Under the pieces are notes generated by a model that was not told the origin of the DNA, ran no database searches, and worked only from the letters and a program-made list of their open reading frames with translations. Positions 12,607-62,898 of a stretch of 64,000 nucleotides of DNA are shown here, piece by piece; within the stretch, counting starts at the first letter, position 1; each line of letters starts with the position of its first letter. Location: the NCBI GenBank assembly GCA_001783805.1, contig MFNS01000001.1, positions 192,649 to 256,648 on the forward strand. The letters are read 5' to 3'. The DNA comes from Candidatus Levybacteria bacterium RIFCSPHIGHO2_01_FULL_40_16. GTDB lineage: Bacteria; Patescibacteriota; Microgenomatia; Levybacterales; UBA12049. A program made the translations under genes and the position numbers.

Positions 12607-13047
12607 TTATCTAAATTTTTTGTACTGCGTGAACAACTTGTTTACCTCTGATTGCAAATGACGATGCCGGCTGCGGTGCGGCAAGAGAGCGCCTGAAAAG
12701 TTTTTTGGGATATGCAAGAGCTCATGAATCAATACTTTCTTCTTTTCGTCCGGAGATAGCTTATCATAATAACGAGATAAAACTTCTATAATATATGCTG
12801 GTTTAATATTCAAGGCTCTTTGAAATATTTTAGGCATTGCCCAAATTCTTGCATAGGATCTGGATTTCGATCCAAAGGTCCGGAAACAAAAAATCCTTGA
12901 AGGGTCAATATTGGAAAAATCTAAAACTTTCAACATTTTATCAATATCTTTCTTAACTTCTCCGGCATCTTCCCATTCCAAGGTTTTAGCAGTTTTGACT
13001 TTTGCGTTTTGACTTTTTCGTTTTTTAGGTATGCTTATCCGCCACAT
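12607..13047 (-). CDS. HExxH-motif protein (putative Zn-dependent hydrolase)
   Basis: VLIHELLHIP motif; the C-terminal tail is encoded by a GC-rich patch. Confidence 0.3.
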   Translation of the reverse strand: MWRISIPKKRKSQNAKVKTAKTLEWEDAGEVKKDIDKMLKVLDFSNIDPSRIFCFRTFGSKSRSYARIWAMPKIFQRALNIKPAYIIEVLSRYYDKLSPDEKKKVLIHELLHIPKNFSGALLPHRSRHRHLQSEVNKLFTQYKKFR

Positions 13048-37018: not shown

Positions 37019-37090
37019 GCCCTTGTAGCTTAACGGATAAAGCACTGGTCTTCGGAACCAGTAATGGGGGTTCGATTCCCTCCAGGGGCA
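37019..37090 (+). tRNA. tRNA-Arg (anticodon TCG); TATAAT -10 at 37003-37008
   Basis: GCCCTTG acceptor, loop CTTCGGA, T-loop TTCGATT. Confidence 0.8.
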
Positions 37091-37106
37091 CACCTCGCTT
37101 TGCTCG

Positions 37107-39851: not shown

Positions 39852-41129
39852 CTAAATAGATTCAGCAGCCAATTTGGTGCGTTCGTATTTGTCTGCCATG
39901 TAGCCGTTGGGAACCGTGGTAAGTTTGTCTGAATATAATAAAAATCCATTGCGGATGGTATGATCGCCAAAACGCTCATTAATAAAATCTACTGTTTGTT
40001 GCAAAGAATTCTGCTTTGCAGAAGAATCAAATAAAGATAGGGGAGTATTGCTTGAGTCCTCTAAACCTGATGCCGTAATTCCAATTTGCCTGACATATTT
40101 AAAATTATTGACATTAACTAAATTGGTTAATAAATCAAACATTTCTTTACCTGTATCAAAATATTTCGTATAAGTTTTTCTTTGATGTAAATTTATGTTT
40201 CCGCCAAAATAATATCCGACAGTCCTGGCTTTTTTATTTAAGCGCCTTAATTTGATGCAAACTTCTTCGCACAATTCATAAATGTTTTGCAGAACAACTT
40301 TTTTATTATATTCGTTTTGGGGCAAACAATAATTCCGTCCCACCGATTTCACTTCCGGAGTCTTAGTGTAGGAACTTAGAACATCTGTGCTTAAGCCTAA
40401 GCCTACTTGATGTAAAAACTCTGCCTCTGCAGAGCCAAATTCCTGAATTAATAATGATAAATTCGCATCCCGTAATTGCAATAGATTGTAAATGCCGATC
40501 TTATTAAGTCTTAATTTTATTCTTTCTCCGATTCCGCAGACATCGGTTAATTTTGCTTTTGCATAAACTGCTCCTAAATTATCCTTGGTAATTTCGAACA
40601 CCCCGTCCGGTTTGTTAATGCTCGATGCCAATTTTGCCAAAAGTTTATTGTGCGAAATGCCAACCGAAACCGTAATATGTTCGCCGATTTTTTCTCTGAT
40701 TTCTTTTTTAAGAAGTTTTATCGTGCTATAAACTCCGCCGAATAAATGATTCGTCAAAGTAATATCCATAAAAACTTCGTCAATTGAGAAAAGTTCGACT
40801 TCCGGAGAAAAGCTTTGACAAATCTTCAAAAACTTCTTTGACACTTCCAGATATTTAACAAAATTAGCCGGAGCAAGATTCAGTGTGGGACAAATTTTCA
40901 GAGCTTCATAAGTTCGGGCTCCTGTTTTAATTCCTAATCTTTTCGCTTCGCGGCTGGAGGCAATAATACAAGTCCTGCCGTTGGTTGCGGTCACTCCGAG
41001 AGGCTTATTGCGCAAAAGGGGATTAAACTGCTGTTCGCAGCTGGCAAAAAAACTGTCAAAATCAATATGTAAAACCCGCCTGCCATCGGCTTTTGCCGAA
41101 GGTAAATGCGGGCAGGTTATTTTTTGCAT
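39852..41129 (-). CDS. dinB: DNA polymerase IV (Y-family)
   Basis: VLHIDFDSFFASCEQ catalytic motif; full UmuC/DinB architecture. Confidence 0.85.
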   Translation of the reverse strand: MQKITCPHLPSAKADGRRVLHIDFDSFFASCEQQFNPLLRNKPLGVTATNGRTCIIASSREAKRLGIKTGARTYEALKICPTLNLAPANFVKYLEVSKKFLKICQSFSPEVELFSIDEVFMDITLTNHLFGGVYSTIKLLKKEIREKIGEHITVSVGISHNKLLAKLASSINKPDGVFEITKDNLGAVYAKAKLTDVCGIGERIKLRLNKIGIYNLLQLRDANLSLLIQEFGSAEAEFLHQVGLGLSTDVLSSYTKTPEVKSVGRNYCLPQNEYNKKVVLQNIYELCEEVCIKLRRLNKKARTVGYYFGGNINLHQRKTYTKYFDTGKEMFDLLTNLVNVNNFKYVRQIGITASGLEDSSNTPLSLFDSSAKQNSLQQTVDFINERFGDHTIRNGFLLYSDKLTTVPNGYMADKYERTKLAAESI

Positions 41130-42039: not shown

Positions 42040-43941
42040 ATGAACAATTTAACATCGGATAAAATTAGAAATATCGCGGTTATTGCGCACGTTGACCACG
42101 GAAAAACTACGCTTGTAGATTTCATGCTCAAGCAGTCCCATACCTTCCGCGAAAATGAAGCGGAAATGACTCAAACTACTATTCTTGATTCAAATCCCCT
42201 GGAAAGAGAGCGGGGCATTACTATTTTGGCCAAAAATACCGCAATAAATTACAAACCTGCCCGCAATGCTTCGCCCGCCGGCATGCCTTCGGCAAAGCCG
42301 ATGGCGGCCAGGCAACACGATGCAGGCGGGGACTACAAAATTAATATTATAGATACTCCGGGGCACGCGGATTTTTCAGGGGAGGTTGAAAGGACTCTCA
42401 ATATGGCAGACGGAGCGCTTTTGATTATTGATGCGTTGGAAGGACCGATGCCGCAAACTAAATTTGTGCTTAAAAAAGCCCTTGGAATAGGTTTAAAAGT
42501 GATTGTTATCATCAATAAAATTGATAAAAAACTCGCAGATATTGCAGATTCTTTTGAAAAAACCAATGATTTATTTCTGGAATTGGCAACCGATTCGGAA
42601 CAATTGAACTTTCCCGTTCTCTATGCCGTAGGCCGCGAAGGAAAAGCAGCGGTAAAACTGGAAGATGTACAGGGAAGCAAAGATTTAGACCCAATTATGC
42701 AAACAATTATCAATTATATTCCGGCTCCAAAAGTTGACGCCGGCCCGTTTAGAATGCTGGCGACTGCTTTAGATTACGATACCCACAAAGGCAAACACGT
42801 CATCGGCAGAATCAGAAGCGGTACTCTGGAAAAAGGACAAACAGTGGTTTTAATTAATGCTAAAAATGAAAAAATTCCTGCCAAAATAGAAAATATTTAT
42901 ATAAACCGCGGTCTTAAAAAAGACGAGGTTGAAAAAGTGAGGGCCGGGGAAATAGTTGACATTACCGGAGTTGACAATGTGACTATCGGAGATACGATCG
43001 CAGATTCCAGCAATCCGGTTGCGCTTCCGCGAATTTCAATTGAAGATCCTACAATCAAAATTGCTATTTTTGCCAACACCAGCCCTTTTGCAGGCAAAGA
43101 GGGGAAATATTCAAATTCCCGCCAAGTCTATGAAAGGTTAGTTAAGGAATTGGAAACGAATATCAGTATGAAGTTAGAGGTTATGGAAGATAAATTTGTA
43201 GTTTCCGGAAGAGGGGAATTGCATTTGTCGGTTTTAATTGAAACCATGAGGCGCGAGGGTTATGAGTTCCAAGTTGAAAAACCGGAAGTAATTACAAAAA
43301 TTATCAACGGCGTAGAGATGGAGCCGGTTGAAGATTTAATTATTGATGTTCCGGACGAATTTCAAGGAATAATTTCAAGAGAGTTAGGAGAAAGAAGGGG
43401 ACAAATGACCAATATGGATGCTGACGGAAAAGGTAACACGCGTTTTGAATACAAAATTCCTTCCAAAAATCTTCTGGGACTGCGGAATACTTTATTAACC
43501 AACACTAAGGGTACAGCGGTAATCAATACTATGTTTGATAAATACGAGCCGTTGACGCCTGTACTTCCTAAAATCAGAAACGGTGTCTTGATTGCATCGG
43601 AACCGGGAACTGCCTTAACTTTTGGCCTGCAAAACGCGCAAGGAAGAGGCATAACTTTTATTGACCCCGGAACATCGGTTTATGAGGGAATGATTGTCGG
43701 TCTAAATACGAGAAGCGATGATATTGAAATAAATGTTGCTAAAGGAAAACACTTAACCAATATGCGGTCCGCAAATGCGGACATTGCAATTGCTTTAACT
43801 CCGCCCCTCAAAATGAGTTTAGAACAATATTTGGATTTTTTGGAAGACGACGAGCTTTTGGAGGTAACACCGAAAAGTTTAAGGCTGCGTAAAAAACTTT
43901 TGACCCGTCTTGACCGTGTTAGGGCTGCAAGAGTACAATAA
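42040..43941 (+). CDS. typA: translational GTPase TypA/BipA carrying a 25-aa in-frame insertion (PARNASPAGMPSAKPMAARQHDAGG) in the G domain
   Basis: AIIAHVDHGKTTL, DTPGHADF and NKID motifs; the insertion is encoded by a 76-nt GC-rich element at 42256-42331. Confidence 0.85.
   Translation: MNNLTSDKIRNIAVIAHVDHGKTTLVDFMLKQSHTFRENEAEMTQTTILDSNPLERERGITILAKNTAINYKPARNASPAGMPSAKPMAARQHDAGGDYKINIIDTPGHADFSGEVERTLNMADGALLIIDALEGPMPQTKFVLKKALGIGLKVIVIINKIDKKLADIADSFEKTNDLFLELATDSEQLNFPVLYAVGREGKAAVKLEDVQGSKDLDPIMQTIINYIPAPKVDAGPFRMLATALDYDTHKGKHVIGRIRSGTLEKGQTVVLINAKNEKIPAKIENIYINRGLKKDEVEKVRAGEIVDITGVDNVTIGDTIADSSNPVALPRISIEDPTIKIAIFANTSPFAGKEGKYSNSRQVYERLVKELETNISMKLEVMEDKFVVSGRGELHLSVLIETMRREGYEFQVEKPEVITKIINGVEMEPVEDLIIDVPDEFQGIISRELGERRGQMTNMDADGKGNTRFEYKIPSKNLLGLRNTLLTNTKGTAVINTMFDKYEPLTPVLPKIRNGVLIASEPGTALTFGLQNAQGRGITFIDPGTSVYEGMIVGLNTRSDDIEINVAKGKHLTNMRSANADIAIALTPPLKMSLEQYLDFLEDDELLEVTPKSLRLRKKLLTRLDRVRAARVQ
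42256..42331 (+). repeat. GC-rich miniature repeat element (CCTGCCCGC...GCAGGCGGGG), in-frame inside typA
   Basis: About 68% GC in a roughly 37% GC context; the same termini occur at 47517-47560 and 60157-60199. Confidence 0.6.
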
Positions 43942-45605: not shown

Positions 45606-45869
45606 CTATTCTAGCTTATCATAGTTTTCGAAAATGATTTTTCTCAATCTATGTCCAAAACCAGACTTTAAAAATTGTTTTCTTTTATCTGCGCACAATC
45701 TGCAATAAAAGTTTTCGAAATAAACTAAACGCCATGGCCGATTTGTCTTCGTATATCTAGAAAGTCCATCATTATGTTCCTTCAATCTAGATTCAATATC
45801 TTTTATTGTTAATCCTATATATGTCTTGCTTTTGTTGTGTAAACTTTTCAAAAAGTAAACTTTATACAT
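45606..45869 (-). CDS. small GIY-YIG nuclease-family protein
   Basis: MYKVYFLKS...TYIGLTIKDIESRLKEHNDG...WRLVYFE: GIY-YIG core; close paralog of the 47227 gene. Confidence 0.65.
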   Translation of the reverse strand: MYKVYFLKSLHNKSKTYIGLTIKDIESRLKEHNDGLSRYTKTNRPWRLVYFENFYCRLCADKRKQFLKSGFGHRLRKIIFENYDKLE

Positions 45870-47226: not shown

Positions 47227-47502
47227 ATGTATAAAGTTTATTTATTGCATAGCCTAAAAGACACAGGGATGTCTTACGTTGGATTAACAATTAAGGAAAT
47301 AGACAAGAGAGTTGAAGAACATAATAAAGGACTATCACAATATACAAAAACATTTAAGCCGTGGAGATTAGTTTATTACGAACTTTTCTATTGCAGAACA
47401 TGTGCCGAAAAAAGAGAACAATTCTTGAAAAGTGGAGTAGGATATCAATTAAGAAAACATCTGCTTACATTTAAGAATTCTTCTTTGAAGAACGGGGGTT
47501 AG
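47227..47502 (+). CDS. small GIY-YIG nuclease-family protein; 3' end runs through a hairpin variant (TTCTTCTTTGAAGAA) into the split-tRNA locus
   Basis: MYKVYLLHS...YVGLTIKEIDKRVEEHNKG...WRLVYYE. Confidence 0.65.
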   Translation: MYKVYLLHSLKDTGMSYVGLTIKEIDKRVEEHNKGLSQYTKTFKPWRLVYYELFYCRTCAEKREQFLKSGVGYQLRKHLLTFKNSSLKNGG

Positions 47503-47721
47503 CTCAGTTGGCTAGACCTGCCCGCAATTGCCTGGAGCCGATAGCGACTGGCAGGCGGGGCGCGCGGTTTGGCCCGCCTGACTTGAAATGACGGGGTGTA
47601 GTTCATCGGTAGAACGCTCGGTTTGGGACCGAGAAGCAACAGGTCCAATTCCTGTCACCCCGACAAGTCATTTCGGGCAGGGACCGTGAGGTCGGAGGTT
47701 CAAATCCTCTACCCCCGACCA
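47493..47721 (+). ncRNA. split tRNA-like gene: 5' half (acceptor CGGGGGT plus D-arm, 47493-47518) and 3' half (47675-47721: variable region, canonical T-arm GGAGG-TTCAAAT-CCTCT, acceptor ACCCCCG-A-CCA) separated by about 155 nt that contain a GC-rich repeat and a complete tRNA-Pro
   Basis: The outer 5' and 3' acceptor strands are perfectly complementary (7 bp) and a 7-bp CCTGCCC/GGGCAGG helix closes the insert; the 3' half resembles the tRNA-Pro 3' end (…GGTCGGAGGTTCAAATCCTCT…ACCA). Confidence 0.4.
47592..47663 (+). tRNA. tRNA-Pro (anticodon TGG) nested in the split tRNA-like locus; atypical T-loop TCCAATT
   Basis: CGGGGTG/CACCCCG acceptor (C1-G72), loop TTTGGGA; flanked by inverted repeat GAAATGA / TCATTTC. 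Confidence 0.65.
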
Positions 47722-47807
47722 AGTTGAGTTTTTATGTGCTAAAATTGAAGTAGTTTACTTCGGATAATTAAAGCGGGCCTGCCCGCCGAAGTTCCGAAGG
47801 AACGTAG

Positions 47808-47878
47808 GCGGGTGTAGTTTAATGGCAGAACACGACTTTTCCAAAGTCGATACGAGGGTTCGATTCCCTTCACCCGCT
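47808..47878 (+). tRNA. tRNA-Gly (anticodon TCC)
   Basis: GCGGGTG acceptor, loop TTTCCAA, T-loop TTCGATT; preceded by a compound GC-rich hairpin (47757-47803). Confidence 0.85.
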
Positions 47879-47931: not shown

Positions 47932-48001
47932 ACCCGCCAACGCTCGCGTTTCGGCCTTCGGCTCGACGAAGTTAGTCTACGGCCAGACGAAGTCGGCGGG
48001 C
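47932..48001 (+). promoter_or_regulatory. structured GC-rich 5' leader (ACCCGCC...GGCGGG closing helix) immediately upstream of the RBS of the DUF378 gene
   Basis: About 70 nt with internal hairpins, followed by AAGGAGGTGA-N5-ATG; same termini and about the same length as the leader at 61212-61283. Confidence 0.4.
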
Positions 48002-56483: not shown

Positions 56484-56957
56484 TTATCTGCTGTAGAGAC
56501 CGATTAATTCTGATTTGTCAATAATATGGCCTTGCATTTCTTTTTCCAAGGTCTCCTTGCCTGGATTGTTTAAATTTAAAACTACATCCAAAGAGTAGAG
56601 CTTGAAGAAATATCGGTGGGTGCCGGATGGCTCGCCCGCTAACGCCTGAGCGTAGCGATGGCGAACGGGGGGACAGGGTCCGCCATAACTCTTTTTACCA
56701 AAACTTGTTGTCGCTTCAATTCCGCCTTTTGGAACACTATTTTCCGCAATTTCCACGGTATTTGGGTCAATATTAAATACAATCCAATGGATCCATGTTC
56801 CGCCCGGCGCATCCGGATCATCCATGATTAAGACTAAACTTTTGGCATTTGTGGGAATTTCAAGAAAAGACAGCGGGGGATTTATATTCTCCCCATCGCA
56901 GGTATATTTGGAAGGTATTTTGGAATTATTTTCAAAAACAGAACTTATTATTTTCAC
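56484..56957 (-). CDS. YbhB/YbcL (PEBP) family protein carrying a 15-aa in-frame insertion (VRHRYAQALAGEPSG) that duplicates the HRY motif
   Basis: DPDAPGGTWIHW and GGPCPP...THRYFFKLY PEBP motifs; the insertion is encoded by the GC-rich 45-mer at 56622-56666. Confidence 0.75.
   Translation of the reverse strand: MKIISSVFENNSKIPSKYTCDGENINPPLSFLEIPTNAKSLVLIMDDPDAPGGTWIHWIVFNIDPNTVEIAENSVPKGGIEATTSFGKKSYGGPCPPVRHRYAQALAGEPSGTHRYFFKLYSLDVVLNLNNPGKETLEKEMQGHIIDKSELIGLYSR
56622..56666. repeat. GC-rich repeat-family insert inside the PEBP gene (GCCGGATGGCTCGCCCGCTAACGCCTGAGCGTAGCGATGGCGAAC)
   Basis: Shares CGCCTGAG..GATGGCG..CAGGG with the element at 60157-60199 (opposite strand). Confidence 0.5.
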
Positions 56958-57729: not shown

Positions 57730-57987
57730 CTAGGCATGATCATTCCAGTCTTTTAATCTTTTCCGCAAATAACTTTTGCCCAAACGAGTTTTGAGATATT
57801 TTTCTCTACGATAAGCATCAATTTCGCTTAGGCTGGCTTCGTAGTATATTATATCAAATGGAGCATATGGGCTGGTAGACTTAACCATTTTCTCATTATG
57901 CTCTCTAAATCTTCCTCTTAAATCATTAGTACATCCTGTATACAGAAATTTTCTGGACGTACTTTTTAAAACATAAACGTAAAACAT
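57730..57987 (-). CDS. small GIY-YIG nuclease-family protein, 5 nt downstream of the tRNA-Val locus
   Basis: MFYVYVLKS...LYTGCTNDLRGRFREHN...FDIIYYE. Confidence 0.65.
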   Translation of the reverse strand: MFYVYVLKSTSRKFLYTGCTNDLRGRFREHNEKMVKSTSPYAPFDIIYYEASLSEIDAYRREKYLKTRLGKSYLRKRLKDWNDHA

Positions 57988-57991
57988 CTTG

Positions 57992-58172
57992 TGGACTCTA
58001 GAGGATTTGAACCTCTGACATCTTCGATGTAAACGAAGCGCCCGGCCTGACTGGACTTTGTGGACCCGAGAGGATTCGAACCTCTGACCTTCTCAGTGTA
58101 AATGAGACGCTCTACCAACTGAGCCACGGGTCCATTCAAAGTCGGGCAGGTCTACCGCTGAGCTAAGAGTCC
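57992..58172 (-). ncRNA. split tRNA-Val-like gene: 5' half (acceptor GGACTCT plus D-arm, 58146-58172) and 3' half (57992-58060: anticodon arm with TAC, T-arm AGAGG-TTCAAAT-CCTCT, acceptor AGAGTCC-A), with a complete tRNA-Val nested between
   Basis: The outer acceptor strands pair 7/7 (one G-U); the 5' half matches the Pro-locus 5' half over TAGCTCAG..GGTAGACCTGCCCG; the nested tRNA is flanked by GACTTTG / CAAAGTC. Confidence 0.4.
58061..58133 (-). tRNA. tRNA-Val (anticodon TAC), intact, nested in the split locus
   Basis: GGACCCG acceptor, TGGCTCAGTTGGTAGAGC D-arm, loop TTTACAC, T-loop TTCGAAT. Confidence 0.85.
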
Positions 58173-60139: not shown

Positions 60140-60373
60140 TGCCCAGGGGGAGATTCCCTGCCCGCCATCAGCTGTCGCCTCAGGCGACTGCAGGCGGGGA
60201 ACTCCCAAGCCCTTGCGGACACAGCGTTCTGAACACTGCATGCCCGCCTGCCAGAGTGCCCCAAGAGGGACTCGAACCCTCACGTCCTTGCGGACACAGC
60301 GTTCTGAACACTGCATGTCTACCATTCCATCATCGGGGCACGGCGGACAGGTCTACCATTTCATCACCTGGGC
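60140..60373 (-). ncRNA. composite tRNA-Leu(CAG) locus: outer 5' half (acceptor GCCCAGG plus D-arm-like GATGAAATGGTAGAC) and outer 3' part (duplicate anticodon and variable arms, GC-rich repeat 60157-60199, acceptor CCTGGGC-A) flanking the intact tRNA
   Basis: The outer acceptor strands pair 7/7; a 32-nt duplicate of the anticodon/variable arm (CCTTGCGGACACAGCGTTCTGAACACTGCATG) is present twice; the 5' half ends GACCTGTCCGCC, like the other split loci. Confidence 0.35.
60257..60339 (-). tRNA. tRNA-Leu (anticodon CAG), class II
   Basis: GCCCCGA/TTGGGGC acceptor, loop TTCAGAA, variable arm TGTCCGCAAGGACGT, T-arm GAGGG-TTCGAGT-CCCTC. Confidence 0.8.
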
Positions 60374-62019: not shown

Positions 62020-62898
62020 ATGAATAAAAATGTTACTACGGCTCTACAAAAAGAGCCCAACGGAACAATCCGTCTGACAATTACGATTCCGGCTGTTGAC
62101 GTCAAAAAAACCTGGGAAGAGGTAATGCTTGAGGTTGCAAAGAATGCGGAAGTTCAGGGCTTTAGAAAAGGAAAAGCACCCAGAAAATTAGTTGAAGAAA
62201 AAGTTGATAAAGAAAAGATTAGGGAAGAAGTTTTGAAAAAGCTTTTACCAATCGCCTATACGGAAGCTGTTAAGTCCCAAGGAATAAAGCCAATTATAAA
62301 TCCCAAGATTCATGTTGAGAAGATCGACGATCCGTCGACCCTGAGCGAGCAAAGCGAGTCGAAGGGTTGGCAATTTACCGCTTTAACTTGTGAAGCTCCG
62401 ATTATCAAATTGGGTAAATATAAAGAAGCTATTCAAATAATTACGGCAAAAAGTAAAATTATCTTACCTGGAAATCCGCCAGCCGGCGGACCCATACCTG
62501 CCAAATTTGAGGATATCGTGAAAGCTTTATTGGATAACGTCACCGCTGAAATACCTTCAATTCTGATTGACAATGAAACCGACAGGCTTTTATCCCAGAC
62601 CCTGGAAGATGTTAAAAAACTTGGCTTAACGCTTGATCAATATCTGTCTTCAACCGGTAAAAATCCGCAAATCTTAAGAGAAGAGTATAAGAAAAAAGCG
62701 GAAAATGATGTTAAATTGGAATACACGCTTTCCAAAATTGCGGAAGAAGAAAAGATCACAGTTGAAGAAAAAGAAATTGAAGAGGCGGTAAGAGCCAGTA
62801 AGAGCGATGATGAAAGAAAGAATTTGGAAGCTAACCGGTATCTTCTGGCCAGTATCCTAAGGCAACAAAAAACACTTGATTTCCTCAAGAATTTGTGA
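62020..62898 (+). CDS. tig: trigger factor, compact form (N- and C-domains, no PPIase domain), with a possible GC-rich in-frame insert at about 62323-62373
   Basis: GFRKGKAPRKLVEEK N-domain signature; the GC-rich segment encodes DDPSTLSEQSESKGW and resembles the PEBP insert (CTGAGCG.AGC..GCGA..CGAA.GG). Confidence 0.7.
   Translation: MNKNVTTALQKEPNGTIRLTITIPAVDVKKTWEEVMLEVAKNAEVQGFRKGKAPRKLVEEKVDKEKIREEVLKKLLPIAYTEAVKSQGIKPIINPKIHVEKIDDPSTLSEQSESKGWQFTALTCEAPIIKLGKYKEAIQIITAKSKIILPGNPPAGGPIPAKFEDIVKALLDNVTAEIPSILIDNETDRLLSQTLEDVKKLGLTLDQYLSSTGKNPQILREEYKKKAENDVKLEYTLSKIAEEEKITVEEKEIEEAVRASKSDDERKNLEANRYLLASILRQQKTLDFLKNL

Follow-up and report, generated by a model that had tools for sequence, protein, structure and literature searches.

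Results

A family of GC-rich hairpins with fixed ends

We analysed a 64,000-nt stretch of the genome of Candidatus Levybacteria bacterium RIFCSPHIGHO2_01_FULL_40_16 (contig MFNS01000001.1), hereafter the window, in which a sequence-only reading had proposed a family of GC-rich miniature repeats. The window contains the typA gene (open reading frame, ORF, 42040-43941; Pfam matches GTP_EFTU and BipA_C), the dinB gene (ORF 39852-41129) and three loci at which an outer tRNA gene is interrupted by a hairpin that holds a second, complete tRNA gene of the same anticodon. Hairpins without a gene are called solitary copies below, and those with a tRNA gene are called cassettes.

The window has a GC content of 37.7%, and the elements have 64-74%. 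Each element is a non-coding imperfect palindrome with the ends 5'-CCTGCCCGC…GCAGGCGGG-3'. Read antiparallel, these ends form nine pairs, including one T·G and one C·A pair, and the complementary strand gives the mirror pattern. Solitary copies were 21-75 nt long. At no more than one mismatch, CCTGCCCGC occurred 16 times in the window, compared with 4.9 expected occurrences, and none of 100 shuffles reached 16. A search of the window for paired termini returned 41075-41116 (-), 42256-42330, 47517-47559, 47573-47681 (-), 47778-47812 and 60157-60198. There are six copies with exact termini in the 64 kb, plus two cassette variants, and the family has at least eight members here: one in typA, one at the N-terminus of dinB, one at the 5' edge of a tRNA-Gly gene and five in the three tRNA loci. 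When five of the CCTGCCCGC copies were folded as DNA, four gave z-scores of -2.7 to -4.4, and the tRNA-Pro copy gave -1.4.

The 5' flanks differed among the sites (…TAGA, …CGCT, …TTGG, …GTTC, …CAAA, …ATAA), and no fixed target word, such as the tetra- or pentanucleotide 5' of an IS200/IS605-type insertion, was seen among them; the GTAGA present at three sites is the tRNA D-loop sequence and not an element-linked GTAG. Inverted ends, as in MITEs (miniature inverted-repeat transposable elements) of the cut-and-paste kind, were present, and target duplication was found at none of the five exactly defined tRNA sites, nor at typA or dinB. Between tRNA-Gly(TCC) and the next gene, we also noted a GC-rich intergenic palindrome of 68 nt whose ends, CCCGCC…GGCGGG, are perfect (47933-48000). 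It may be a relative of the family, and its fold was no better than those of shuffled sequences (z = -0.9).

To place the family in relatives, we used the typA neighbourhoods of 80 Patescibacteria genomes together with the separately fetched Levybacteria loci L006 and L007. Family copies were found in the Levybacteria loci L006, L007, L009, L011 and L013, and a related palindrome was found in one Roizmanbacteria locus. The typA copy also shares with copies in unrelated contigs a 19-nt identity that extends past the termini, and in L136 a complete 33-nt copy sits inside the loop of a 36-nt copy. Several copies each were seen in the mid-GC (48-63%) IMG/VR contigs L104, L105, L116, L125, L135, L136, L138, L161, L167 and L208. 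Copies in these 'viral' contigs are identical to the typA copy in their ends and in their first 19 nt (e.g. CCTGCCCGCAATGCTTCGCAACGCGAGGCAGGCGGG). The sole IMG/VR contig examined was L105, in which the copies are intergenic, lie amid other short repeats, and accompany proteins with no Pfam match. BLAST of one multi-copy viral-contig region against GenBank phages returned no similar DNA.

These results agree in part with what the sequence-only reading had claimed for the family. It had described GC-rich segments in an AT-rich genome, with common and complementary termini at the typA, tRNA-Pro and tRNA-Leu loci; the segments stand out in GC content as described, the termini are common to 42256-42330, 47517-47559 and 60157-60198, and the elements fold as hairpins, as judged by the DNA z-scores. 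Its proposal of a miniature palindromic family, in frame in conserved genes at lineage-specific sites and tied to tRNA loci, was supported. The motifs would have been expected nowhere else if no family existed, and further copies occur in the window, in Levybacteria relatives and in metagenome contigs.

Copies in protein genes are in frame and lineage specific

The typA copy (42256-42330, +) is 75 nt long and has 71% GC; the reading had recognized the GC-rich insert and its family ends and had taken it as 76 nt. It adds PARNASPAGMPSAKPMAARQHDAGG to the protein, that is, 25 aa between NYK and DYK (NYK-PARNASPAGMPSAK…AGG-DYK), in the part of the GTPase domain that runs from the RGITI to the DTPGH motif. 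Alignment with orthologs bore out the predicted 25-aa addition: about 115 of the best 120 homologs are 603-612 aa long and read AINY-(K/G/R)DYKINIID, where the window reads AINYK-(25 aa)-DYKINIID. In L006 the DNA of the empty site is AATTACAAG/GATTACAAA. At the exact insertion site, L007 has a mini-version of 21 nt whose ends are the same (CCTGCCTCGCCGCAAGGCGGG), and 3 nt upstream of that site L008 has a GC hairpin, also of 21 nt, that is unrelated. Because nearly all orthologs are empty and L007 and L008 carry other hairpins there, the insert is lineage-specific DNA at a site that was hit more than once. As single-stranded DNA, the insert folds with -24.1 kcal/mol (z = -2.7). It is apparently composite, with a canonical outer hairpin and a second hairpin in its loop; a copy in another ORF (L287, 711-782) has the same interior. 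The identical TypA protein is encoded on 24 contigs of several assemblies, including GCA_001782335.1, and its closest named relatives are Candidatus Levybacteria of the candidate phyla radiation (CPR, or Patescibacteria).

A 42-nt copy lies in frame after codon 4 of dinB (41075-41116, -). The site is empty in L009, L011, L012, L013, L014, L015 and L019 (M-D/E-R/K-x-I-L-H-I-D) and is filled by 42 nt in L006 (8690-8731). The interiors of the window and L006 copies have the same orientation and are identical at 19 of 24 positions. Four diagnostic arm positions are swapped between the two (T·G/C·A), so that the CCTGCCCGC…GCAGGCGGG strand is the opposite one. The dinB gene of L009 is 82% identical to that of the window and that of L006 is 78% identical; since the closer L009 is nevertheless empty and L006 is filled, occupancy does not follow phylogeny.

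Palindromic inserts that the orthologs lack were found in frame in typA, dinB, rarA (L011, 30 nt) and the PEBP gene, with a length divisible by 3 in every case. In long ORFs, the solitary copies measured 21, 30, 33, 36, 42, 72, 72 and 75 nt (multiples of 3 in 8/8); the window dinB (42 nt), L007 (21 nt) and L011 rarA (30 nt) copies follow the same rule. The copies in tRNA and intergenic contexts were distributed 5:4:4 over the three length classes. No out-of-frame copy lay clearly between two halves of a gene, with one ambiguous case (L313, 2110). As the reading had stated, reading frames stay intact: copies in coding sequence are always multiples of 3.

Three tRNA genes in the window are split by cassettes with the same anticodon

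The outer tRNA-Pro(TGG) gene (47493-47721, +) is in three pieces, 47493-47516, 47560-47572 and 47682-47721, with the layout CGGGGGTTAGCTCAGTTGGCTAGA / 43-nt element / GCGCGCGGTTTGG / 109-nt insert / GACCGTGAGGTCGGAGGTTCAAATCCTCTACCCCCGACCA. The 43-nt solitary hairpin (47517-47559, +) lies in the D-loop after TAGA. The 109-nt cassette (47573-47681, +) lies in the anticodon loop and contains a complete tRNA-Pro(TGG) gene at 47592-47664, as called by ARAGORN; its arms, CCTGCCCGA…TCAGGCGGG, read on the minus strand. Excision of both elements gave a perfect 77-nt cloverleaf.

The outer tRNA-Val(TAC) gene (57992-58172, -) consists of the pieces 58151-58172 and 57992-58041, and its D-loop is split after GGTAGA by a 109-nt cassette (58042-58150, -) with a complete tRNA-Val(TAC) at 58060-58133. 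Rfam reported the orphan 3' part of the outer gene as a partial tRNA match at 58000-58057. A near-identical Val cassette is present in L303 at the same site of a different, degenerate outer tRNA-Val without an anticodon arm.

The outer tRNA-Leu(CAG) gene (60140-60373, -) is in the pieces 60352-60373, 60199-60242 and 60140-60156. A 109-nt cassette (60243-60351, -) with a complete tRNA-Leu(CAG) at 60256-60339 interrupts the D-loop after GGTAGA, and a 42-nt solitary hairpin (60157-60198, +) interrupts the T-loop (TTC/GAAT). Excision of both gave a perfect 84-nt cloverleaf. The inner and outer Leu genes share an identical tract of 31 nt. A further solitary hairpin of 35 nt (47778-47812, +) abuts the 5' end of tRNA-Gly(TCC), the GCGGG at its 3' end being the first acceptor-stem bases; such a hairpin abutting the 5' end of tRNA-Gly was also found in L313.

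In silico excision at the exact termini thus gave three perfect cloverleafs in the window, with the anticodons of the inner genes. Together with the tRNA-Arg genes of L006 and L013, five outer tRNAs were restored by exact excision without leftover or duplicated bases. The flanking bases at the tRNA sites leave the boundaries unambiguous, which establishes that there is no target-site duplication. The link to tRNA loci drawn by the sequence-only reading was correct; it had missed that resident tRNA genes are split in their loops, and that at each locus one element carries a tRNA of the same anticodon. All three window cassettes are exactly 109 nt long although their tRNAs are 73, 74 and 84 nt. 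The commonest length among the metagenome matches listed (see below) was also 109-110 nt, which may reflect a length constraint.

Related Levybacteria loci indicated which gene came first. In L006 and L013, tRNA-Arg(TCG) is split in the anticodon loop (CT/TCGGA) by inserts of 104 and 105 nt that carry a different tRNA-Arg(TCG). L012 has a tRNA-Arg(TCG) of the outer type of L006 and L013, uninterrupted, and at the syntenic place L009 and the window have only those tRNA-Arg types that the cassettes of L006 and L013 carry. L014 has a syntenic tRNA-Pro without interruption, which matches the outer copy of the window at 86% identity and the inner copy at 78%. From the Arg pattern of L012, L009 and the window, and from the likeness of the L014 tRNA-Pro to the outer copy, we concluded that outer genes are residents and inner genes are arrivals. 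The un-nested tRNA-Arg(TCG) of the window (37019-37091) resembles the inner (cargo) tRNA of L013, and the syntenic gene of L012 is of the outer type, which fits either replacement of tRNA genes or capture of cargo between lineages.

Cassettes are widespread in metagenomes

We searched metagenome contigs with the pattern CCTGYCCG – 52-78 nt – GTTCRANTCC – 12-30 nt – CAGGCSGG. This three-block pattern was adopted because a pattern of the two termini was too unspecific, its hits in viral contigs being mostly chance matches in GC-rich DNA. It gave no match in IMG/VR viral contigs and at least 120 loci in metagenome contigs, mostly of 34-50% GC. The counts that follow rest on the matches listed. 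The cassettes were 100-127 nt long and had the arms of the solitary hairpin with the tRNA at the apex, e.g. CCTGCCCGCCATGGCC-tRNA-AGGCGATGGCAGGCGGG.

A tRNA was found between the arms in 104 matches. The outer tRNA was restored by simple excision in 48 of these and, in 15 more, after one or two further small hairpins had been taken out. Inner and outer anticodons were the same in all 63 restored outer tRNAs, which comprised Arg (five anticodons), Val, Thr, Gln, Pro, Gly, Cys, Leu, Asn and Met. Restoration failed in thirty, owing to truncation, more than two extra insertions or contig ends, and eleven gave odd calls that were degenerate or unresolved, such as an extra base in the anticodon loop (L215) or TCA in place of TCG (L275). 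Insertion points fell into clusters around 20-25, 33-37 and 53-58, corresponding to the three tRNA loops. Inner and outer genes were 0.65-0.99 identical, with a mean of 0.78.

Two side observations concern the outer genes. The outer tRNA of L275 has an Arg(TCG)-type body but, once the cassette is excised, reads TCA at the anticodon; either a dead gene has decayed here, or the sequence is potentially opal-suppressor-like. Mini-hairpins of other families occupy outer tRNA loops in L210, L218, L221, L238, L270/L282, L274, L291 and others. They include a 20-nt perfect palindrome, CCTGCCTGCCGGCAGGCAGG, as well as TCCGCCAGAGGCGGA-type and CACCCGCCGGGTG-type hairpins, and the palindrome CCTGCCTGCCGGCAGGCAGG is also in frame in the tig gene of L303.

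Outer tRNA genes decay

Extra hairpins of several families were present in two of the three outer tRNAs of the window and in at least 15 of the 63 elsewhere. About ten outer genes were truncated or degenerate or lacked an arm (L224, L316, L271, L293, L325, L281, L209, L305, L303). Paired loci were compared for the parts that change. Between L233 and L264, the inner gene showed 0/77 differences, the outer gene 3/75, including a T-stem indel, and the arms 2/34. Between L242 and L289, the outer copy of L289 had gained an acceptor-stem mismatch. Between L219 and L267, the arms differed at 1/31 positions, the inner tRNA at 19/75 and the outer at 25/74; the tRNA-Arg types were exchanged between the inner and outer positions. 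That the arms are much better conserved than either tRNA is a sign of mobility. The interrupted genes do not look like maintained, functional copies: a spare tRNA was always present, and the outer genes decay and evolve faster.

We then cut out all GC-rich hairpins between 16 and 80 nt long in 2 Mb of sequence, which included 346 called tRNAs. In this excision scan, no solitary hairpin alone interrupted a tRNA gene in an intact context; only the copies abutting the end of tRNA-Gly were found. Rfam scans, including matches at E ≤ 1, returned only tRNAs and no ribozyme or intron family. Two intron types were rejected. A group I or group II intron or a small ribozyme does not fit, as Rfam found only tRNAs and the elements are 21-127 nt long versus the more than 200 nt expected. 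An archaeal-type bulge-helix-bulge intron does not fit either, as the element ends pair flush at the junction, the same ends occur in unrelated exon contexts and the outer genes decay.

The frame rule, the constant presence of a spare tRNA, the decay of the outer genes and the inner and outer rates together argue that the elements are not spliced. On this sequence evidence, the best reading is that neither hairpins nor cassettes are removed from RNA.

Discussion

A proposed mechanism

We consider it probable that the family consists of selfish hairpins that act at the DNA level and are not spliced, and that the cargo tRNA of a cassette serves as a backup and comes to replace the resident gene. 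Insertion would be precise, at the foot of the element's own stem, and would not duplicate the target. The preferred targets would be single-stranded loops of hairpin-forming DNA, both those of tRNA genes (D-, anticodon and T-loops) and the apical ones of other copies. Occasionally the elements would land in protein genes, where only in-frame, stop-free copies in tolerant surface loops would survive and be translated, as in the TypA loop between RGITI and DTPGH and among the first residues of DinB.

In a tRNA gene, an insertion would kill the gene, which would explain why insertions in tRNA genes are seen only with a spare present. The spare would come from a cassette of 100-127 nt with a complete tRNA gene in its apical loop. 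Such cassettes would nest in a resident gene of the same anticodon, and the cargo tRNA would take over. The disrupted outer gene, being dispensable, could then receive more hairpins and be truncated or deleted, and the replaced tRNA gene would be open to reinvasion. The anticodon match would arise because all other insertions of a cassette into a single-copy tRNA gene are selected against, with gene conversion between the inner and outer genes assisting. Such conversion would let a cassette exchange its cargo for the resident allele before moving on, and it would fit the patches of identity (the Leu tract and shared anticodon arms). The perfect match may be due either to selection, other insertions being lethal, or to homology-guided spread.

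The mobilizing enzyme would act in trans, and the only candidates are a Y1 (HUH) IS200-like transposase and small GIY-YIG nucleases. The precise ends at the stem foot, the lack of target duplication, the strand-marking mismatches and the loop targets resemble single-strand HUH systems, a resemblance that is only an analogy. Y1_Tnp ORFs were found in L006, L010, L011, L012 and L013. The L006 ORF (2266-2934, -) encodes a 222-aa protein near typA, is conserved in L010-L013, and is a candidate. No Y1 transposase gene was found in cis in 749 kb of cassette loci, a result that is uninformative since such genes are single-copy.

Several observations weigh against this model. No transposase is linked to the elements: the Y1_Tnp ORFs of the relatives are not flanked by copies, and the window has none. 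For selection alone to yield a 63/63 match, many insertions must have failed and cassettes at neutral sites must be rare. Within a genome, the anticodon arms of inner and outer genes often resemble each other, and this likeness, together with the 31-nt Leu tract, could reflect shared function and not gene conversion. The typA and dinB sites are filled repeatedly in non-sister lineages, which calls for site-specific insertion, precise loss or allele transfer, none of which the model specifies. Moreover, the 47 outer tRNAs that simple excision restored are entirely free of stem mismatches, as is the case for inner ones, and some outer genes with 3-4 hairpins (L270/L282) still have intact exons; functional, spliced genes would look like this. 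We assume that intact outer exons result from recent invasion, from detection bias and from insertion and deletion of hairpins that is faster than point mutation.

Possible homing by a locus-adjacent nuclease

An unlikely alternative, though the least unlikely of those considered, is homing. A GIY-YIG nuclease encoded next to the locus would cut uninterrupted tRNA genes, and the nested allele would spread between related cells by double-strand-break repair or recombination through the homology of tRNA exons and neighbouring genes. This would be like the collaborative homing of an intron and a free-standing endonuclease, with a spare tRNA in place of splicing. Three small GIY-YIG nuclease ORFs are present in the window. 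One (47227-47502, +) has its stop codon in the first bases of the outer tRNA-Pro, a second (57730-57987, -) lies 5 nt past the outer tRNA-Val, and a third (45606-45869, -) lies between tRNA-Arg(TCT) and tRNA-His in a spacer that is without it in L006. Five of the 13 GIY-YIG matches in the listed metagenome loci lie within 300 nt of a cassette. The same cassette occurs at the same site in diverged resident genes, and exon homology would automatically yield the anticodon match.

Against homing, a GIY-YIG ORF is near only 5 of the 104 listed cassettes, and none is near the tRNA-Arg loci of L006 or L013. One arm family is found at different sites (Gln positions 35 and 55; Arg 33/34 and 35/36). Solitary copies in protein genes and hairpin loops require an insertion step independent of homology, and tRNA exons that are 20-55 nt long and about 75% identical offer little for recombination to work on. 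A link between GIY-YIG nucleases and the elements is possible but not general. With an ORF within 300 nt of so few cassettes, GIY-YIG was rejected as an obligatory partner, a result that also counts against it as the enzyme source in the DNA-level model. All three ORFs (85-91 aa) lie no more than 50 nt from tRNA genes, two of them at nested loci, and look mobile themselves. A 95-aa ORF adjoining the Leu locus was considered and rejected, having no Pfam match and no relatives in the fetched loci.

Possible removal from RNA

We regard it as improbable that the elements are intron-like. Here, hairpins, or cassettes from which RNase P/Z has freed the inner tRNA, would be cut at the stem foot by a bacterial endonuclease and the exons would be joined by a ligase such as RtcB. 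This would leave outer tRNA genes functional in spite of one to four insertions, and copies in mRNA could also be removed. Every insertion in a tRNA gene lies in a loop, as in the multi-intron tRNAs of archaea and red algae; the termini are strongly conserved across genomes, as expected for a recognition site; the 47 restored outer tRNAs have no stem mismatch; and exons stay intact in outer genes with several insertions. Compensatory changes also distinguish the outer tRNA-Arg genes of L006 and L013. These compensatory differences are, however, explained by independent invasion of diverged residents, since the cassette is the same and the outer genes differ. No bulge-helix-bulge is possible, as the ends pair flush and recur in unrelated exon contexts. 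Solitary hairpins were never found in a tRNA without a nested spare, outer genes are truncated or without an anticodon arm at about ten loci, stem defects build up in the outer copy while the inner copy is unchanged, and copies in coding sequence are always in frame. A strict form of this idea, a new bacterial intron whose protein machinery recognizes the CCUGCCCGC/GCAGGCGGG stem, cuts at its foot and religates the RNA so that tRNA genes with one to four insertions, one of which releases a second tRNA, are functional, is in our view slightly less probable again.

It is very improbable that the segments are host features (lineage-specific protein loops, terminators or pre-tRNA leader and trailer stems) alike only through GC-rich palindromic composition: the tRNA-Gly copy and the cassette arms could serve as leader or trailer stems, some copies in unrelated mid-GC contigs are intergenic and near gene starts or ends, and the tig segment has a homolog in one ortholog, but the 19-nt identity past the termini joins the typA copy to unrelated contigs, boundaries are exact and orthologs have empty sites, one element lies within another (L136), presence is patchy and does not follow phylogeny, and the arms are conserved while the flanking tRNAs diverge.

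Comparison with known systems

Rickettsia palindromic elements (RPEs) were reportedly described by Ogata and co-workers in 2000. We know of no transposase associated with RPEs, as is the case for the elements that we favour as DNA-level hairpins. Both are short non-coding palindromes in a small AT-rich genome, lie in frame in conserved genes at lineage-specific sites and are translated, and both also occur in non-coding and RNA-gene contexts. The sequence-only reading had likened the copies in protein genes to RPEs, and this was essentially right. Compared by description, RPEs are about 100-150 bp and Rickettsia-specific, whereas the present elements are 21-75 nt, strongly GC-rich and have fixed 9-nt ends; they also prefer tRNA and hairpin loops, and a derivative form carries a whole tRNA gene. 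Background on RPEs is available in PMC1779305 and PMC1458961.

Repetitive extragenic palindromic (REP) sequences and bacterial interspersed mosaic elements (BIMEs), which are served by IS200-like Y1 HUH transposases (REP-associated tyrosine transposases, RAYTs), are likewise GC-rich imperfect palindromes of 20-40 nt in many copies, with strand-marking mismatches and no target duplication, and Y1_Tnp ORFs exist in related Levybacteria. However, REPs are extragenic and have a conserved GTAG/CTAC motif that is absent here, since the flanks differ at every site, and there is no Y1 gene in the window and none flanked by copies elsewhere. To our knowledge, REPs neither carry nor split tRNA genes.

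Yeast mitochondria contain GC clusters, which are GC-rich mini-hairpins. The repetitive hairpins of fungal and sponge mitochondria (e.g. PMC2800124) similarly invade compact AT-rich genomes, in coding and RNA genes, and are nested. They differ in being organellar and unrelated in sequence, and they are not known to have a tRNA cargo or same-anticodon nesting. The disrupted tRNAs of archaea and red algae (PMC4090602, PMC3728597) also have interruptions in the D-, anticodon and T-loops, sometimes several, with related inserts at different positions. Their introns form bulge-helix-bulge motifs, are spliced by EndA and interrupt the sole functional copy of the gene, whereas here a spare is always present and outer genes decay.

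Phages and integrative and conjugative elements (ICEs) that use attachment (att) sites are also mobile elements in tRNA genes, their damage being neutralized by a duplicate tRNA segment, and the group I introns that interrupt patescibacterial tRNA genes neutralize theirs by self-splicing (PMC13011429). The present cassettes are about 100 nt long, have no integrase or ribozyme, lie in a loop and not at the 3' end, and carry a complete independent tRNA gene. The 2026 study of tRNA introns in Patescibacteria covers only group I introns (PMC13011429). A full-text search of the literature, with incomplete coverage, found no description of hairpins carrying tRNAs or of nested tRNA genes of the same anticodon. 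Hairpin cassettes whose tRNA apparently takes over from the matching resident gene are widespread and seem to be undescribed.

Significance

Under the DNA-level model, CPR bacteria would be home to a minimal mobile element that measures about 100 nt and has no protein gene. Bringing its own replacement tRNA would let this element survive in essential single-copy tRNA genes and would cause tRNA genes to be turned over serially across species. Fragments, "split" genes and other odd tRNA annotations in these genomes would be explained, and the cassettes would be a natural marker of horizontal exchange among uncultured Patescibacteria. TypA, DinB and RarA would tolerate translated hairpin inserts. 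The DNA hairpin is sharply conserved and has strand-marking mismatches, and its mobilizing enzyme, with a preference for the loops of folded single strands, could be of interest both for its mechanism and in practice. Should the minority reading of removal from RNA hold instead, this would be the first case in Bacteria of tRNA splicing that depends on proteins.

Other GC-rich segments in the window

The sequence-only reading had grouped segments in the PEBP gene, in tig and at 12660-12700 with the typA and tRNA-locus copies, and only for the latter two was membership of the family supported. The segment at 12660-12700, proposed as a possible further copy, is a moderately GC-rich stretch (59% GC) without family termini that partly overlaps the end of a PF18894 match (residues 24-125 of 146), and it is not an element. 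The PEBP gene does contain an insert, an in-frame GC hairpin of 39 nt (56631-56669, -) that adds about PVRHRYAQALAGE; this is 13 aa, not the 15 aa suggested. Three orthologs read GGPCP-PSGTHRYFF where the window has the 13 extra residues. The insert has other termini, its similarity to the main family (the Leu copy) is weak or marginal (p about 0.01), and it belongs to a different hairpin family.

In tig, a 30-nt GC-rich in-frame segment (62332-62361, +; PSTLSEQSES) is of uncertain origin. It had been taken as a probable family member, which did not hold: it shows no significant similarity and no hairpin fold, it is missing in two orthologs, and a less GC-rich homologous peptide is present in a third (L303). 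A second variable loop of tig contains the mini hairpin TCCGCCAGCCGGCGGA (62475-62490, +), which resembles the small hairpins found in outer tRNAs elsewhere.

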